DNA from: an uncultured Chroococcidiopsis sp.
GTDB taxonomy: Bacteria; Cyanobacteriota; Cyanobacteriia; Cyanobacteriales; Chroococcidiopsidaceae
NCBI GenBank assembly: GCA_964248365.1
Contig: CAXTYC010000001.1
Span: 64,001-128,000 of the forward strand
Reading direction: 5' to 3'
Length of the DNA stretch: 64,000 nt
Shown here: one piece after another, positions 31,281-41,780 of the stretch
Layout: each line of letters starts with the position of its first letter
Numbering within the stretch: the first letter of the stretch is position 1
Program-made: the position numbers and the translations under genes
The notes under the pieces: generated by a model
What the model was told of the DNA's origin: nothing
The model's input: only the letters and a program-made list of their open reading frames with translations
Databases searched by the model: none

Positions 31281-32000
31281 ATGTCTGTCGCCAAAGATTT
31301 CGAGATTTCCGCAGACTCAGGGGAAGATATTATCATTCCACCTGGCGATTTATGGAGTGATGAACCGCCCTTGGAAAGTGACTTGCATCGTATTCAGATA
31401 GATCTGCTGATAAACTGCCTGGAATGGTGGTGGCGTAACCGTAATGACTTTTATGCCAGTGGAAATCTGACAATTTATTTCAGTCCCGACCAAATAAAAT
31501 CAAGAGACTTTCGAGGACCTGACTTTTTTGTAGTGTTGGGAACCGAACGCAAACCTCGTAAAAGTTGGGTGCTTTGGGCAGAAGGCGGCAAGTATCCCAA
31601 TCTGATTGTAGAAATTCTCTCAGATAGTACCGCTGCTATTGACAGAGGATTGAAGAAACAACTTTATCAAGATACCTTTCGCACTCCTGATTATTTCTGG
31701 TTTGACCCCCAAAGCCTCGAATTTGCTGGGTTTCACTTAGTCGATGGACAGTACCAACCGCTAGAACCAAATCCCCAAGGTTGGTTGTGGAGTCAGCAGT
31801 TAGAGCTATATCTGGGTATCTATGAGAGAAAGTTGCGCTTTTTTACCAATGAGGGGCGTATGCTTCCCACACTTGCAGAAGTGGGTGAGGATGAAAGGCA
31901 GCAGAAGGAATTAGCACAAGCTAGAGCCGAACAAGAGGCACAACGAGCCGAACGCTATTCGGCGCTCCTCAAGGACTTGGGTATTGATCCACAAGTCTAA
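31281..32000 (+). CDS. Uma2-family endonuclease
   Basis: SDEPPLESDLH, FRGPDFFVV, PNLIVEILS, TPDYFWFDP. Confidence 0.92.
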   Translation: MSVAKDFEISADSGEDIIIPPGDLWSDEPPLESDLHRIQIDLLINCLEWWWRNRNDFYASGNLTIYFSPDQIKSRDFRGPDFFVVLGTERKPRKSWVLWAEGGKYPNLIVEILSDSTAAIDRGLKKQLYQDTFRTPDYFWFDPQSLEFAGFHLVDGQYQPLEPNPQGWLWSQQLELYLGIYERKLRFFTNEGRMLPTLAEVGEDERQQKELAQARAEQEAQRAERYSALLKDLGIDPQV

Positions 32001-34807: not shown

Positions 34808-35025
34808 CTATATCTTGTTCATACTAGTATAACTCAATACTATTTTCGATGATCGCCACATTTGGTTACATCTACCAAAGTGGTAGTTTATAATTCTGTA
34901 AACAGAAAGATGTCTCCTTGTGCGATCGCACTGTGCAACTGCGGCTAGGCTGATCCAAACAAAAGATCAAGGGTGTTGCATACTATTGTGATGATCGTGT
35001 CACGCAAAGACGCAAAGGCGCAAAG

Positions 35026-35811
35026 GTGAGAAGAGAAGATTGCTTTTTTGTGCAACGCCAGGTAAGTTTGTTTTTTTCAGGCTGTGTCTTGGTTGTGCAA
35101 GTGTTTGTTTTCAGTATTGCTAATCCTGTTATAGCTAGTGTAAAAACTCAAACTCTATGCTACAATGCTAATTCCCAATTTCAACCAATTACAGATAAAA
35201 TTTCCTCGCAACCACGTATTGTAAAAGTGGTACAGCTATGGGTGGGAAAACCTGATCAAGGATTTCGTGCTGATGGCTTTGTACCCGAAGGTGCGATCGC
35301 CACAACTAATATAGCTTTAGATGGTTTAAACTCAAGTGTGCGTAGTCGCGCCACCAACCTCACAGCCTTAATTGCATTGGCTATGTTAGGCGAAGTTGAG
35401 CGAGCAGATTTAGCAATTTTTAATGCTGGTGCAATTCGGATTGATGGCTATATTCCACCTGGTTTAATTACCCAGAATGATATTATTCGTATTTTCCCAT
35501 TTGGTGGCAAAATATTAGCTGTAGAAATGAAGGGTAGTTTATTAGAAAGAGTGTTGGAACAAGGACGAGCTAACCGAGGCACAGGCGGTTATTTGCAAAC
35601 AGCTAATGTGAGTAAAAAACAGAATTTCACCACCTGGTTAATTGGAGGAGAACCTCTCGATCCAAGTCGTAATTATCGAGTGGCAATTAATGATTTTTTG
35701 ATGAGTGGTAAAGAGAAAGGTTTGGAATTTTTGAATTTTAATCAAAAGGGAGTGAAGTTAATTGCCCAAAGGCGTGATATTCGCTTGGCTGTGATTTCGC
35801 AGCTAAGATAA
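35026..35811 (+). CDS. 5'-nucleotidase C-terminal domain protein (start uncertain)
   Basis: NAGAIR..IPPGLIT..DI..IFPF, GGYLQ, PLDP...YRVAINDFL.SG; no phosphatase N-domain. Confidence 0.75.
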   Translation: MRREDCFFVQRQVSLFFSGCVLVVQVFVFSIANPVIASVKTQTLCYNANSQFQPITDKISSQPRIVKVVQLWVGKPDQGFRADGFVPEGAIATTNIALDGLNSSVRSRATNLTALIALAMLGEVERADLAIFNAGAIRIDGYIPPGLITQNDIIRIFPFGGKILAVEMKGSLLERVLEQGRANRGTGGYLQTANVSKKQNFTTWLIGGEPLDPSRNYRVAINDFLMSGKEKGLEFLNFNQKGVKLIAQRRDIRLAVISQLR

Positions 35812-36253: not shown

Positions 36254-38485
36254 TTATAGCCAAAACTGGCGATCGCCTTCCAGCATTCCGCTGAAATTTA
36301 TTCCCTTTAGCCGTAAATAAGCAATGCTGTCAGCGCCATAGAGCGGCATTGGCAGACGAGGTGTTTGTAACGCTCCATGATGAAGTAATGTCAGTTTAAG
36401 TGTTGTTTCTAGAATATCTTCAATTGGTACTTGATATCCTTCCTCACGAACTGTCAAGCGCAAGGGACGAGCCAAACCTACTCTTTCAGAAACCTTGGTT
36501 GTCACTAAAACTGCTTCACGACATGAAAAGCGAAGCGCCAAACCTTTTTCTGGTGCTGATACAATTTTTTGATTCAGGTTATACAGTCGGGGATTATAAG
36601 ACTTGCGACACTCTACCAGAACAAACCTCGCTCCAATTGCTTTTGCCCATGCCTTTAAATTCTCCGCTTCCTTACCACGAAAAACTCCATCTCGATAAAT
36701 TAGAATAGTTTTACCTCTCAGTTGGGATTCTCCTAGCAATGTCTCTAAAAATTTTTGCGGAATTTCTTCGCCTTCAAGTGTCGAATCATCTTCCAACTGA
36801 TAGCGAATGAACTCTCCTTGTTTCCCATAAAGACGTACACTGGCACAAGCATTCCTAGTTCCAGGCAAACTTTGCTTAGCCTTTCTAGAAATATCCAAGC
36901 CAACAAAATAGTCAGCTATCTCTAACGGTTCAGCTAGAACAAAAGGCAAGTTACCCAGCTTTGCCAGCATCCCTGGAATTACTTGATTAAGAATTTGTCT
37001 ATGCTCAACACTACTCAATGTATCGGCATAAATAACTTGGCTAGCAATACCACGCCGCATTAGCTTTGAGTAGATACGATGATATAAACTGCCACCTTCT
37101 TCATTATCAGTATTGCGATCACTCTGAGGTAAAAATGTTAAAACAATATCAGTTGGAATCTCTATTGTTTCATTAATGGTTCTTTCTAACTCTGCTCTAG
37201 CATCAGCTCCTCTTAAGTTACTGATTACCACTGGCTTTTTAGTAACAACCTGACTATTAAACCCATAACTTCTCAAACGTTGTTGAACGCTATCTAAAAA
37301 AGGGTTAACAGTGAAGTCACAAATTTTCAAAGCCGCAATGCGAATCACGCTTGAGCGCTCGCGATAATGATCGTGACGGTAATAAACACCCCCACCATTT
37401 CGCTCAGATAATCCTTTAATAATTTCACCTCTCTTACCTATAAAACCTTTTCCAAAAAGTAGTGGTGTTTCATCAAGCTTGTGCGGTAATTGCCAAAATA
37501 ACGTTTTATAATCACGGCTGTTGATACTACGTTCTAACTGAAATCCATAAGTGGCTAGAGCAGTTTCAGCTTTTTGTCTATAAGAAGCTAAGAGGGCTGT
37601 TCGGTCTTTGTGGGAAATCTTGGTTGCCTTGAGTAACTTACCATAATCCACCTCGAAGCTGTCAGCAGTTTCAGCTGTAACCACAGGACGCAGTAGTACT
37701 AAGGGATAGTCACGCGATTCTCTATTTTTAAACTGTACAGTGACTAGGGGTTGGCTGTCAGGAGCAACTTTCAGTGCTTGTTTACTGATTTCACGAGTTG
37801 CCCTCTTGATTAGTCTTTCTCTGTGTTGTCCTACTGTTCCTACCCAGCGAGTGATAGTACCGTAACTATCTGTATCTATATCTCGAACATTTAAACCGTT
37901 TAAAAGCTCCTCTAAATTCTGCTTATTGGAATGATTTTGATAAAAATCTTCTAAATTACCTCGGTAAAGTACACTACTGTGAATTGTTAAAGCAAGAGCA
38001 GGCTGTAACTGTCCCTGTATTTCAATTGTTTCTGCCCAAAATTCAAGCTCGCGTCTCACATCAACCATGTTGTCAGATTCGACAGGTTTACTGGGAAGGA
38101 TTTTTGTTTTTCTTAAAACCTGGAAAGCCATCTGAGACAAAATATAAGGTGTTAATTGCCACTGACTTACTAATTCAACTGAGTAGTAGCGGTCACCAAA
38201 ATCAGTCAATTTTTCTTGAGTATTTTCGAGAGTATCCTGCCATTCTTTTTGTGTAGGCATGGAAATATTAGCCATCCCCAAGGCATAGAAATATTTATCA
38301 TGCTCCTGCCAAACAACAACCATTCCAGTTAAGTTACGACTGAGATGAAAACTCAAGCGATTGCCGTCTTCTTTACTAATTTCTGGAATTAGTCGAAAGC
38401 AGCACCAATTAGGTTGTAGAATGTTAAGCGGGAAAACTTCACTCAAAAATGTGGAAGCTTGGGAAACTGAAACAGTGCTTGTCAC
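36254..38485 (-). CDS. Long prokaryotic Argonaute with intact catalytic tetrad
   Basis: 743 aa; MID region Y..GIASQVI..AKLG; PIWI GLDIS (D), GEEI (E), YRDG (D), [11 protein letters not shown] (D). Confidence 0.93.
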
Positions 38486-39294
38486 GTACTAACCTCAGAA
38501 ACAGAAAATTCACAAATACGGCTAAATGGACAGAATTGACAACTGTAACCAGGATTAGGTGGAAAAATTCGTTTAAACTCTGCTGGTTTTTGTTTATAAC
38601 ATCGCAAATCTTTTTGATGCTGCCCAGAGATGCGTACTAATTCGATCTGGATAGCATTCAATTGAGCAGGTGTTGCAGTAATTCGCTCAGACCACTTACC
38701 AGTTTCTAAGTTGTAGAATGAGGCTATAGCTGGTTGCTGTGGGTAAAGATAGCTAGCTGCTAGTAGATAAACAAATCCCTGTCGCCGATCGAAGTCAGTT
38801 TTACCAGTCTTGAAGTCTAAAATATGTAGTGTGCCATCTTGTTCTTCAAAGATACAATCAATAGCAGCATATAAATTAAAGATGTAACTGCCCTGCTGAA
38901 TCAAAATTGGTTCTGGAAATCCTTCATCACCTCGGTTCAACTGTATAATGTTTTTTCCAAGAAGAATTGGATTATCGAAATAGTTTTTTAAGATTTTAAT
39001 TACTCGCTGCTGCACATTAGCTGGCTGTTCATTTAGTTGCAGAATCTGTGCAACTTGCTCCACACCATCCTTGCAGTAAAATACTTGACGGTTTTGATGA
39101 AATTCATAAATCCCTCTTTGAGCTAGATGACCAATTAACTGAGGTGTATTGTCTTGAGCCAATAATTCTGCTACTTGAGGTTCTTGTTTTCGAGCCTTAG
39201 TAAAGCCCCGCTTCATATCACAATGGCAACTTTCTTGCCCTATAGGTGGCCAAAATAATAACCAAAGATTATAACTTGCAAATGGTAGCCACAT
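38482..39294 (-). CDS. Cas4-like/RecB-family PD-(D/E)XK nuclease with predicted Fe-S cluster (ACE-type Argonaute partner)
   Basis: AIDCIF..ILDFKTG..RQGFVY; N-terminal Cys (CHC) plus C-terminal [14 protein letters not shown] overlap with the Argonaute start. Confidence 0.87.
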
Positions 39295-39307
39295 ATTTGG
39301 TATCAAT

Positions 39308-39889
39308 TTAAGCTTCAGTAATACATAGTTGGCAATCAGTTTGTTGCTGCTTCCAACCATGCTGTATTGCTACTCGCTTCAAAACTGACTTGATAGTTGT
39401 TGGAGAAGCAGAAGACATCATAATACTGGGATAAACTGCTCTACCCCATTCATGATGCTCTAGGGTACGGCAATTATTATGAACCATCGGCAACCCAAGT
39501 AAAGCTTTAACTACAGCACTATCGTCATGAGAAATTTGTCCTGAGCGCGAGAGTAGAGGATAGCCACTGCGGGAGTCGATCAAGTCTGTTAAAAATCCGC
39601 GCTCGCGCAGTTTAAACATCACTTCCAAGCCGAAGCGTTTAAACTTTTCCCGCAGTCGCTCTTTTTCCCTTTCGATATGAGGTGTAGTTTCTACTAGCTC
39701 ATATCGGGATTGCTGCAAGACAACTATAACCCACACAACAGGCAAATTCCAATCTGGTATAACTCGCTCTAAATTTTGGGCAATAAACCGACTGGGCAGA
39801 TGAATTGAAACCTGCACTGCCTGTCCTGTTTCTGTAACCAGGTAGATTGGAAAAGTTTGTGGTGACGTATATAGTTTTGAAGAGTTCAT
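39308..39889 (-). CDS. MMADHC/CblD-like protein
   Basis: [33 protein letters not shown] pattern. Confidence 0.7.
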
Positions 39890-39977
39890 GAAGTTTTAGA
39901 AATTCCTTATTACCTCAAATTATTTCGTACATAATATCCTGCTAATCAAGCCCTAATTAAAGTTGATTTTTTCCTCA

Positions 39978-40019
39978 TGTTGCTTGTTTAATCAACACAA
40001 TCGTTCACTTGTTAGTGAA
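39978..40019. promoter_or_regulatory. Candidate operators in the divergent promoter region
   Basis: TGTTG-N10-CAACA at 39978-39997 and TTCACT-N4-AGTGAA at 40004-40019. Confidence 0.4.
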
Positions 40020-40056
40020 GTTTAGAATGATTTGTGTCCAATAAAAAAAAATATAT

Positions 40057-40419
40057 ATGGAAGCAAGTTTTGGTCAACTTATACGTCAAGCGCGTAGGAA
40101 TAAAGGTTATAGCCAACGCCAACTTGCAGATCTAGTGCATTTAGATTTCACATACTTATCCAAATTAGAAAACAATCGTGCTGAACATCCTCCTAGTGAG
40201 GAAGCAATTCGATCACTGGCACAGCATTTAGATCTGCCAAATGAGGAAGAATTGATTTACCTTGCAGGTCGTATGCCTCAACGCGACCAAGAGCTTCTCA
40301 AGCCGAACTACAAATCTATGCCAGAACTATTTCGTAGGTTGCGAGAAGATCCTGAGTTTGCTCAAGAAATCCTTCGTCGGTCAGCTACACAGCCAGAAAG
40401 TGAGGACGAGCAAAGTTGA
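40057..40419 (+). CDS. XRE-family HTH transcriptional regulator
   Basis: FGQLIRQARR.KGYSQRQLA..LDFTYLSKLEN. Confidence 0.92.
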   Translation: MEASFGQLIRQARRNKGYSQRQLADLVHLDFTYLSKLENNRAEHPPSEEAIRSLAQHLDLPNEEELIYLAGRMPQRDQELLKPNYKSMPELFRRLREDPEFAQEILRRSATQPESEDEQS

Positions 40420-41117
40420 ATATCTTTAAACCTTTTCGCTATCAAAAAAAACAAGAGATTGAGCGTCTAGCTAATGACCTTTTGGCGCAGATGCAAACAA
40501 CGCCTAAGTACACTCCTACATTACCTTTAGATGCTAGTCGTGTGGCTGACTTTCTGGATTTAGCTGTTGTTTGGGACAAAATTCCCGCTGACGATGAAGG
40601 GCTGATAGCAGCTAGAATTCTGCCATTAGAACGTTTAATTGAGATAAATGAAGACATTCCTCGACTAATTAACGACGCTGAAGGATTTGCAGCATCCACA
40701 ATTGCTCACGAAATTGGACACTGGGTACTTCACATCAACCAAGACGAAGTTGATAGATTTTTAAACCGACGAGTGCAAATTACACAGTCAACTGTACAGC
40801 CATTCTTGTGCCGTAGTACCAACAACCAGAAGGTAAGCAACTCAATTGAATGGCAAGCTCAGTATTTCGCTAGTTGCTTGCTGATGCCCCAATACATCCT
40901 AGAAGAAAAACGAGTAGGACGTGATTTGACCAACTGGCGCGATCTTTATGCAATGAAAGACGAGCTTGGTGTAACAATATCTAATCTGACAAATCGGCTA
41001 AAAGATCTTGGCTGGATTCACATTCCTTCAGGTTCTAAGCAAATATATTTAGGTGAGGCTGCACCTATTCGAAATAATGAGTGTTTGGATAGCGATCGCT
41101 TTTCCACCATTTCATGA
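40416..41117 (+). CDS. ImmA/IrrE-family metallopeptidase
   Basis: TIAHEIGH (HExxH), EWQAQYFASCLLMP; TTGA overlap with the HTH gene. Confidence 0.92.
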   Translation: MNIFKPFRYQKKQEIERLANDLLAQMQTTPKYTPTLPLDASRVADFLDLAVVWDKIPADDEGLIAARILPLERLIEINEDIPRLINDAEGFAASTIAHEIGHWVLHINQDEVDRFLNRRVQITQSTVQPFLCRSTNNQKVSNSIEWQAQYFASCLLMPQYILEEKRVGRDLTNWRDLYAMKDELGVTISNLTNRLKDLGWIHIPSGSKQIYLGEAAPIRNNECLDSDRFSTIS

Positions 41118-41183
41118 GCGCGATCGCCCTCTCCTCCCATACCAAAGCTAAATTAAAGCATATGCCAATATTTAGGATTACCT

Positions 41184-41780
41184 ATGGAAACGGCTACAAT
41201 AACGCTCCCTCCTACCCTCAAATTGCATCTCGAATTGACGGATGAGCAATTTTTCCAGCTGTGTCAGCAAAACCAGGATTTGAGATTTGAACGCACAGCT
41301 AAAGGAGAAATACTAATTATGCCACCAACCGGAGGAGAAACTAGCAACTGTAACTTTGAAATCGCCGTGCAGCTTGGAATTTGGAACAAACAGAATAATT
41401 TAGGAGTTTGCTTTGACTCTAATGGTGGCTTTACACTGCCTAATGGTGCTGTTCGCGCACCTGATGTATCTTGGGTAAAGCGAGAGCGTTGGGAGGCTTT
41501 AACTACCCAACAGCAAGAGAAATTTGCTCCCTTATGTCCTGATTTTGTGGTTGAGTTACGCTCTGCTAGTGATTCGCTCAAGGAAACTCAGGAGAAAATG
41601 CAGGAGTATATAGATAATGGCGCACGTCTGGGTTGGTTAATCGACCGGAAAAACCAGCGCGTTGAAATATATCGCCCCCTTCAGGATGTGGAAATTTTGG
41701 AAAATCCTGCAACTGTGTCGGGGGAAGACGTGCTACCTGGGTTTGTCTTGGATCTCAGCCCGATCATGAGGATAGATTAA
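41184..41780 (+). CDS. Uma2-family endonuclease
   Basis: IMPPTGGET, RAPDVSW, CPDFVVELRS, LGWLID. Confidence 0.93.
   Translation: METATITLPPTLKLHLELTDEQFFQLCQQNQDLRFERTAKGEILIMPPTGGETSNCNFEIAVQLGIWNKQNNLGVCFDSNGGFTLPNGAVRAPDVSWVKRERWEALTTQQQEKFAPLCPDFVVELRSASDSLKETQEKMQEYIDNGARLGWLIDRKNQRVEIYRPLQDVEILENPATVSGEDVLPGFVLDLSPIMRID

Follow-up and report, generated by a model that had tools for sequence, protein, structure and literature searches.

How does a cyanobacterium control an operon whose products cut DNA, and is such a defence produced at all times or only when it is needed? The question is raised by a locus in an uncultured Chroococcidiopsis sp., located on a 64,000-nt stretch of DNA (GenBank assembly GCA_964248365.1, contig CAXTYC010000001.1, positions 64,001 to 128,000 of the forward strand; hereafter, the window), where genes for a prokaryotic Argonaute (pAgo) and its partner nuclease ACE1 lie divergent from genes for an XRE-family helix-turn-helix (HTH) protein and an M78 zinc peptidase. 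Comparison with other cyanobacterial loci suggests that, on balance of probability, pAgo-ACE1 is under a dedicated XRE repressor which would be relieved by the M78 peptidase, most likely through cleavage of the repressor's tail, and that the defence is probably induced only as required. The locus comprises the following features:

36254-38485, minus strand: pAgo, 743 aa, long-A prokaryotic Argonaute of the APACE1 type
38482-39294, minus strand: ACE1, Argonaute-associated Cas4-family PD-(D/E)xK single-stranded DNA (ssDNA) endonuclease, 270 aa
39308-39889, minus strand: MMADHC-like gene, 193 aa, Pfam PF10229, optional first gene of the operon
39890-40056: divergent control region, 167 nt, carrying operator-like repeats
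40057-40419, plus strand: putative XRE-family HTH repressor, 120 aa, Pfam HTH_19 and HTH_3, PADLOC capH
40416-41117, plus strand: M78 (IrrE/CapP/ImmA-type) zinc peptidase, 233 aa, HExxH motif, Pfam PF06114, PADLOC capP

According to the coordinates of the open reading frames (ORFs), the MMADHC-like gene, ACE1 and pAgo form one tight minus-strand operon, with XRE and M78 running divergently. The GTG start of pAgo lies over the TGA stop of ACE1 (GTGA, 38485-38482) and the TTG start of the peptidase over the TGA stop of XRE (TTGA, 40416-40419), both read directly from the sequence, and 13 nt separate the ACE1 start from the stop of the MMADHC-like gene (39308). The longest ORF of ACE1 extends to 39360; its start was set at the ATG at 39294 because the PADLOC profile match begins at residue 23. 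Searches against Pfam (Piwi, 1.7e-18; PDDEXK_1, 1.3e-10; MMADHC, 7.1e-9; HTH_19, 2.1e-12; Peptidase_M78, 8.8e-8) and PADLOC (best models pAgo_II, 1124.8 bits; Aga_Cas4-like_Nuc, 468.5 bits; capH, 1.1e-11; capP, 2.7e-16) uphold the families proposed for all five genes in a preliminary description made from the letters of the window alone, and the five ORFs, their coordinates, the gap, the two overlaps and the 167-nt spacing are as given there. The five-gene block is flanked by purQ/purS, fur, a pentapeptide gene and a Uma2 gene, and family searches of the window neighbours recovered no integrase, phage or other mobile-element genes near it. Given that the arrangement recurs in dozens of other cyanobacterial genomes, it is far beyond chance.

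Judging from alignments, pAgo and ACE1 constitute a clear APACE1 system with intact catalytic residues. The pAgo matches PDB entry 9iad ('Protein argonaute') over residues 7-743 (E 3.5e-260), and its DEDD tetrad is complete, D531, E573, D599 and D719 corresponding to D533, E574, D600 and D721 of CtAgo. ACE1 matches PDB entries 9iab (8.6e-108) and 9iac (5.5e-100), with D146 and D160 aligned to D148 and D162 of CtACE1, and ends in a C-terminal CxxCx5C motif; the tetrad and the aspartates were mapped from the printed alignments together with the residues named in PMC12094033. Thus, the locus displays the features by which APACE1 is defined, namely, a long-A pAgo with the catalytic tetrad, an ACE1-clade nuclease with its aspartates, and adjacent, co-oriented genes. 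In the ACE1 paper, APACE1 pAgos are described as cutting DNA using DNA guides, and ACE1 as an ssDNA endonuclease that binds pAgo, raises plasmid interference and yields short ssDNA; heterodimer formation, cleavage of DNA guided by small interfering DNA (siDNA) and interference with plasmids and phages are reported there for the Ct and Ma systems, and the APACE1 systems were produced from T7 promoters (PMC12094033). The systems of Chroococcidiopsis thermalis (CtAgo/CtACE1) and Microcystis aeruginosa (MaAgo/MaACE1) likewise combine a long-A DEDD pAgo with ACE1 in adjacent, co-oriented genes, and the matches of the window proteins to the solved APACE1 structures are near full-length (PMC12094033; Mol Cell 2025). 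The immunity module of pAgo and a Cas4-like nuclease envisaged in the preliminary description is accordingly supported, as pAgo-ACE1, by the structure matches and the catalytic residues. What the window locus has beyond the published account of APACE1 is the MMADHC-like first gene and the divergent XRE+M78 pair with conserved operators. The characterised C. thermalis and M. aeruginosa systems do not figure among the loci recovered by the scans described below.

This pair accompanies pAgo-ACE1 in many other genomes. A pAgo-seeded scan with one genome per species yielded 40 loci, 36 of which had enough upstream sequence to judge, and in 12 of the 36, orthologs of XRE and the peptidase (45-71% identical) occupy the same divergent position. 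A wider scan with a pAgo alignment recovered 155 relatives; among the best 80, a sample that overlaps the first one and leans to the clade of the window, 75 loci were evaluable and 44 of these carry both regulator genes. The distribution is structured by phylogeny: on a 44-row pAgo tree, the pair label requires 4 changes compared to a mean of 14.3 under shuffling, with none of 500 shuffles as low. In one well-supported pAgo clade, which spans Nostocaceae, Microcoleaceae, Stigonemataceae, Prochloraceae, Xenococcaceae and others, 17 of the 19 members bear the pair, and both exceptions are sister to a pair-bearing locus. The neighbourhood survey that had been proposed for the HTH and peptidase genes therefore finds them co-conserved with pAgo. 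As far as sequence comparison goes, this co-conservation is genuine, in view of the recurrence of the pair, its clustering in the tree, the cargo-specific lineages, the operators and the block-wise inheritance, the last three of which are addressed below.

The block resides at a fixed chromosomal site that is syntenic within the genus, with a pentapeptide-repeat gene on one side and Uma2-purQ-purS-fur on the other. In the nearest relative (genome G405), the segment corresponding to window positions ~36281-41119 is missing, and the flanking proteins are 72-90% identical to those of the window. The ends of the deleted block coincide with two copies of a direct repeat:

36268-36280: left copy of a 13-nt direct repeat with GCGATCGC, in the last pAgo codons; left end of the deleted block
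41120-41131: right copy of the 13-nt repeat with GCGATCGC, 3 nt past the peptidase stop; right end of the deleted block

The junction in G405 passes through the 13-nt repeat (L249:3875-3887), which contains GCGATCGC, presumably the cyanobacterial HIP1 palindrome. Because G405 still encodes the last seven pAgo codons, the deletion removed exactly the five genes. Three congeners (L251, L252 and L253) carry, at the same site, pAgo-ACE1 divergent from XRE-M78, with no MMADHC-like gene and with an operator at -52. Their pAgo, ACE1, XRE and M78 proteins are 51-61% identical to those of the window, compared to 76-86% for the flanking proteins, which suggests that the cassette was either exchanged in its entirety at a hot spot or has been evolving much faster. 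In a fourth congener, which has no pAgo, the site is taken by an unrelated 411-aa XRE-HExxH (HEYCH) fusion and an 89-aa ORF (L250:4390-5625, plus strand). From the loss in G405 and the divergence of the cassette, it follows that variation, exchange and loss affect the regulator pair and pAgo-ACE1 together.

The control region itself is conserved across loci. Two to four inverted repeats of the form GTTGA-N8/9-TCAAC are found upstream of XRE in nearly every regulator locus (at least one site in 73 of 76), at fixed offsets of approximately -53, -76/-95 and -113 from the XRE start. Allowing at most one mismatch, 201 sites occur in the 22,411 nt formed by the 300 nt upstream of XRE in each locus, as opposed to 116 in the other 834,186 nt of these loci (8.97 versus 0.139 sites per kb, a 64-fold difference). 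Upstream of ACE1 in pAgo loci that do not bear the pair, 18 of 24 regions have no site and the remaining 6 a single match. On both strands, the half-sites include the core sequence of a -35 element, TTGA(C); in two loci (L013 and L014), the entire intergenic region is 111 nt long and holds two sites, so that both promoters there should overlap the sites. The evidence for operators consists of this conservation across loci. In the window, the corresponding features are:

39962-39979: operator-like inverted repeat (GTTGA-N8-TCAAC, 2 mismatches; offset -95 from the XRE start), degenerate and weak alone
39979-39996: operator-like inverted repeat (GTTGA-N8-TCAAC, 1 mismatch; offset -78 from the XRE start)
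40003-40020: variant near-palindrome at -54, where relatives have their proximal operator, with the central G/C swapped in both half-sites
40077-40050, minus strand: putative promoter-like match, by consensus only

The first of these repeats is placed like the distal site at other pAgo-linked loci, and the near-palindrome at 40003-40020 may, by its position, serve as the proximal operator.

The regulator pair is also found beside other genes. A reciprocal scan with the peptidase alignment gave 368 relatives, of which the best 80 (53-64% identical) were used, and most of the pairs that are not linked to pAgo adjoin one recurrent divergent operon family, the hallmark of which is two paralogous coiled-coil proteins of ~330-370 aa ('c3'). 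The c3 pair stands alone in 12 loci and follows three small genes, c0-c2, in ~45 loci, as it does in L074. These operons fall within L041-L120 (for example, L074:1724-5467 and L042:3295-5435, both on the minus strand) and have the same XRE/M78 family and operators. Searches with the c0-c3 proteins against Pfam, PADLOC and NCBIfam gave no match, and c3 matches only phrog_29668 in PHROGs, a family of unknown function. The AlphaFold2 (AF2) model of c1, with a predicted local distance difference test score (pLDDT) of 36.5, is too low for use; a weak lead in the ESM Atlas connects c1 to viral Pam3_Gp34/DUF5895 clusters (0.92-0.95, recognition below the usual mark), and c3 has hits to unnamed clusters only. 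An origin of these operons from a mobile element or prophage is unsupported, the flanks of L074 and L042 being ordinary chromosomal genes.

The regulator lineages follow their cargo. On a 92-row M78 tree, the cargo labels require 12 changes compared to a shuffled mean of 42 (none of 200 shuffles as low), and in each of the three genomes in which two pairs both have a known cargo (Microcoleus vaginatus WJT46, 'Phorm 6' and a Xenococcaceae metagenome-assembled genome (MAG)), each pair groups by cargo with those of other genomes and not with its genomic sibling. The pAgo-linked peptidases form a grade, not a clade, in this tree, obtained by a quick search; the window genome has a single member of the regulator family. 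Judged by these comparisons, the XRE+M78 pair is a modular switch shared between pAgo-ACE1 and the c0-c3 operon family, and the latter is a candidate new inducible system.

Both regulator proteins have features compatible with a proteolytic switch. In an alignment of 45 peptidase sequences, the zinc-binding motif (H98-E99-xx-H102) and E145 are invariant, and C132 shows at least 90% conservation; it belongs to an FLCR motif within the insertion that separates HExxH from E145. The AF2 model of the peptidase (pLDDT 87.4; predicted template modelling score (pTM) 0.85) comprises a peptidase domain, a helical domain up to residue ~197, two short strands and a disordered tail, with residues 130-133 forming a strand within the insertion. 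There is no GAF domain: the 233-aa protein ends ~35 residues after the central helical domain, and all 45 relatives terminate at the same place. The best Foldseek matches are IrrE (3dti, 6.5e-6), CapP (7t5t, 7.7e-6) and PprI with ssDNA (8sln). In XRE, the C-terminal tail is conserved, with L91, R93 and P99 invariant. A complex prediction for M78 and XRE scored 0.80, compared to 0.00 for the best control, at a mark that is reached by 116 of 157 solved complexes and by 2 of 215 mismatched pairs; at least 94% of contacts are the same between runs, with a partner pLDDT of at least 85. The predicted contacts join peptidase residues 31-54 and 74-87 to XRE residues 10-41, that is, the HTH domain including the conserved TYLSKLEN helix. 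The prediction thus supports binding of M78 to XRE, although a pass at this mark may reflect family likeness and not this pair's own binding.

From these features, we infer how repression, XRE cleavage and a cysteine switch could be combined at the locus. Upon derepression, pAgo with small DNA guides would cut invading DNA, aided by ACE1. Until then, an XRE dimer would bind the GTTGA-N8/9-TCAAC repeats within the 167-nt intergenic region, where the occupied half-sites, being -35-like on both strands, would block both the promoter of XRE itself and the cargo promoter. The co-translated M78 peptidase would dock on the HTH domain of XRE, and at rest, C132, on the strand between HExxH and the third zinc ligand, would probably block the active site; such autoinhibition is plausible by analogy to CapP. 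Once activated, the peptidase would inactivate XRE, most likely by cutting the conserved C-terminal tail, and pAgo-ACE1 would be derepressed.

As to what would activate the peptidase, the preliminary description proposed control that is 'probably DNA-damage/ssDNA-triggered'. In that case, the peptidase would sense ssDNA by-products in the manner of CapP and IrrE and induce pAgo-ACE1. We regard this as unlikely. The family likeness is real, as attested by the PADLOC capP and capH assignments and the Foldseek matches to IrrE, CapP and ssDNA-bound PprI; the cysteine in the insertion between HExxH and the third ligand is CapP-like; and ACE1 makes short ssDNA, so that a feed-forward loop is conceivable. 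However, IrrE and CapP bind ssDNA in a groove formed by the peptidase domain and the GAF domain, the second of which is missing here, and according to PMC12828697, ssDNA stimulates the GAF-bearing IrrE homologs and not the GAF-less ImmA or Rir. The missing GAF domain therefore weakens the case for a DNA-damage or ssDNA trigger, and no LexA-type or damage-related evidence was found at the locus. The claim thus turns out to be unsupported, and ssDNA from DNA damage is one candidate signal, not a favoured one. An alternative that dispenses with cleavage altogether is that the peptidase acts as an anti-repressor, binding the HTH domain of monomeric XRE and blocking dimerisation or DNA binding, as in Rir/Crh. 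The predicted interface, which involves XRE residues 10-41 and lies outside the peptidase active site, would fit such a role, and Rir inhibits Crh with no cleavage detected in the experiments reported in PMC12828697. Nevertheless, the invariance of HExxH, E145 and the surrounding motif in 45 sequences argues for retained catalysis, and IrrE, as reported, also binds the HTH domain of DdrO and still cleaves the DdrO C-terminal domain, which makes an anti-repressor that does not cleave improbable in our view.

It is also conceivable that the pair has nothing to do with pAgo-ACE1 and is an autonomous resident of a variable hot spot, be it a toxin-antitoxin-like unit, the immunity remnant of a mobile element or a controller of the neighbouring Uma2 gene. 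That 70 of the best 80 close relatives of the peptidase lie beside other genes would agree with this, as would the nearest NCBIfam model, a 'repressor/antitoxin' family, the location at a hot spot where a congener has an unrelated XRE-HExxH fusion and no pAgo, and the Uma2 gene that comes next after the peptidase, in the same direction, both in the window and at 14 of the 44 loci with the pair. Autonomy is nonetheless hard to reconcile with the divergent, operator-sharing position beside a cargo operon, which is always kept, with lineages that track cargo type and not genome, and with intergenic regions of 111 nt, too short for an independent cargo promoter. The link to Uma2 fares no better, 30 of the 44 pair-bearing loci having no such gene, which moreover remains in place after deletion of the block and has at least eight close copies per genome; neither an integrase nor any other mobile-element gene was found nearby. 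Altogether, we consider an autonomous pair very improbable.

Repression of pAgo-ACE1 by XRE and its relief by the M78 peptidase, the reading that we prefer, has to contend with several observations that weigh against it. Among the 75 evaluable pAgo-ACE1 loci, 28 have neither XRE nor M78, two retain XRE alone and one has peptidase remnants alone; two whole clades of the 44-row pAgo tree are devoid of the pair, so APACE1 evidently works without this switch. Conversely, of the best 80 among the 368 M78 relatives, 10 adjoin ACE1-pAgo and 70 do not, so that the pair is not pAgo-specific. The trees are quick searches with support from the Shimodaira-Hasegawa-like approximate likelihood ratio test (SH-aLRT) only, and related genomes share labels. 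Within the window, the operator copies are degenerate (with one and two mismatches and one variant), the motif is not enriched (4 matches versus 2.26 expected), and promoter-like matches are at background level (16 versus 12.1 in shuffles); the nearest related locus, L002, has no site at one mismatch or fewer. At the protein level, C132 is replaced in 3 of 13 pAgo-linked peptidases, the structural likeness to IrrE and CapP is partial (template modelling (TM) score 0.47-0.49), the direct sequence likeness to CapP is weak (E 0.72), and the predicted M78-XRE interface excludes the peptidase active site.

Among characterised repressor-peptidase systems, CapH/CapP is similarly organised, with adjacent genes for an HTH protein and an HExxH M78 peptidase located upstream of and divergent from their target (Lau et al., 2022, 10.1101/2022.04.27.489752; Calloji et al., 2026, preprint). 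CapH/CapP controls the cyclic oligonucleotide-based antiphage signalling system (CBASS) and other immune operons, whereas the cargo of the window pair is pAgo-ACE1. CapP carries a cysteine on a strand that is inserted between HExxH and the third ligand, and C132 of the window peptidase is predicted to be placed likewise; in CapP, according to the same literature, this cysteine coordinates zinc and blocks the active site, and the cysteine-switch loop over the active site is present in 33% of CapP proteins. The window peptidase differs in the absence of GAF (233 aa compared to the 291-aa CapP chain) and in its longer insertion, 43 residues separating H102 from E145 compared to 29 between H100 and E129 of CapP. 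The DdrO/IrrE (PprI) system of Deinococcus, which provides the best structural match, likewise involves docking on the HTH domain, predicted in our case, and a conserved repressor C-terminal tail. However, IrrE, with its GAF-like domain, responds to stimulation by ssDNA and serves a dispersed regulon, whereas the window pair is single and sits beside one operon. ImmR/ImmA of ICEBs1 and Crh/Rir of a Streptococcus thermophilus phage are each a GAF-less M78 protein with an XRE repressor, although the window peptidase is larger than ImmA and Rir, with a helical domain at its centre and an insertion that bears a cysteine. Unlike those two pairs, which control mobile elements, the window pair has no integrase or phage gene nearby and lies between syntenic chromosomal flanks, and assignment to the ImmR/ImmA-type mobile-element immunity pairs was therefore rejected. 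The main text of the ACE1 paper contains no mention of HTH, XRE, M78 or a peptidase (PMC12094033), and at the level of terms, no association of pAgo with such a regulator is reported in the CapH/CapP paper, the 2026 CapP preprint and the 2018 pAgo survey. Within these texts, the statement in the preliminary description that such a regulatory layer was not known for pAgo-ACE holds. The locus combines two known kinds of system, APACE1 and an HTH/peptidase switch, in a new way.

The first gene of the operon is a looser component. The MMADHC-like protein scores 36.2 bits against PF10229 (cut-off 27), but over profile positions 123-263 of 272 only. Its gene sits between the operators and ACE1 in 7 of the 75 other evaluable pAgo loci, all of them pair-bearing. 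A locus scan seeded with the MMADHC-like protein alone returned no relative; a whole-genome search of a sample of 401 cyanobacteria found the gene in 74 genomes, usually in a single copy, and within one family in 44 of 45. All of the 19 best other loci are stand-alone, with no pAgo, ACE1 or XRE within 1.5 kb, and the copies of the congeners are merely 37-38% identical and lie at another place; G405 has none. The gene is an optional accessory and not a defining part of the system. The 'five-gene unit' of the preliminary description is thus apt for the window genome, where the MMADHC-like gene is within the block lost by the nearest relative, but does not extend to the family, in which this gene is rare beside pAgo and usually stands alone. 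In eight loci, the same slot is taken by a conserved ORF of 73-80 aa that has no family match (L008:8923-9144, plus strand; L027:8904-9146; L029:8874-9095; and five further loci).

The loci without the pair have other neighbours. Upstream of ACE1, the pair-less clades carry Uma2, or a 5-hydroxymethyldeoxyuridine (5-hmdU) DNA kinase with MazG-C, or DUF6932 with a 492-aa HTH-HExxH fusion. The last arrangement represents a second, unrelated HTH-metallopeptidase-like neighbour of pAgo-ACE1: in L003:6442-8999 (minus strand), and likewise in L007, L010, L011, L015 and L036, genes for DUF6932 (PADLOC PDC-M63A), the 492-aa HTH protein with an HELWH motif and DUF4186 are divergent from ACE1. In L004:6392-9127 (plus strand), and likewise in L005, L006 and L033, the 5-hmdU DNA kinase and MazG-C genes immediately precede ACE1-pAgo in the same orientation; these are thymidine hypermodification families, which hints at a link between DNA modification and self/non-self discrimination by pAgo.

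The regulators vary as well. L027:7485-8588 (minus strand) encodes a 367-aa XRE-M78 fusion followed by a degraded second peptidase, L115, L215, L217 and L224 are among the other variant loci, and several pAgo-linked loci have tandem duplicated peptidase genes. L045:1549-6642 is decaying, with an internal stop codon in the peptidase gene and pAgo split into two ORFs in the same MAG. Two Uma2-family PD-(D/E)xK genes are present in the window, one after the peptidase (41184-41780, plus strand) and the other at 31281-32000 (plus strand), and Uma2 genes occur at 23 of the 75 pAgo loci. Uma2 was rejected as a sixth member of the block on account of its copy number and its retention upon deletion, and because contact with M78, ACE1 or pAgo is limited to 4 of the 29 best other Uma2 loci. 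Finally, a 27-29-nt element at window position ~34998-35026 has dozens of matches with 93-100% identity in each of four congener genomes and is a short dispersed repeat.

Argonautes of the long-A group are usually regarded as nucleases that act alone and constitutively. If the repressor-peptidase control proposed here is correct, the host would keep DNA cutting by APACE1 silent, at a large share of natural loci, until there is a need for it, which bears on the cost of pAgo, the risk of self-targeting, the design of assays and the coordination of defence systems. The short sites and the single copy per genome define a tractable operator and regulator set, and the finding points to a further sensing mechanism in the GAF-less branch of the IrrE/CapP family. 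A more far-reaching view, which we offer tentatively as possible rather than probable, is that a cyanobacterial plug-in consisting of a GAF-less M78 peptidase with a cysteine switch and its XRE partner, with an operator that doubles as the -35 element of both promoters, makes APACE1 inducible by a signal other than ssDNA and drives the c0-c3 operon family. In that case, the uncharacterised c0-c3 operon family, flagged here as under the same control, would be a candidate new defence or stress system of cyanobacteria.

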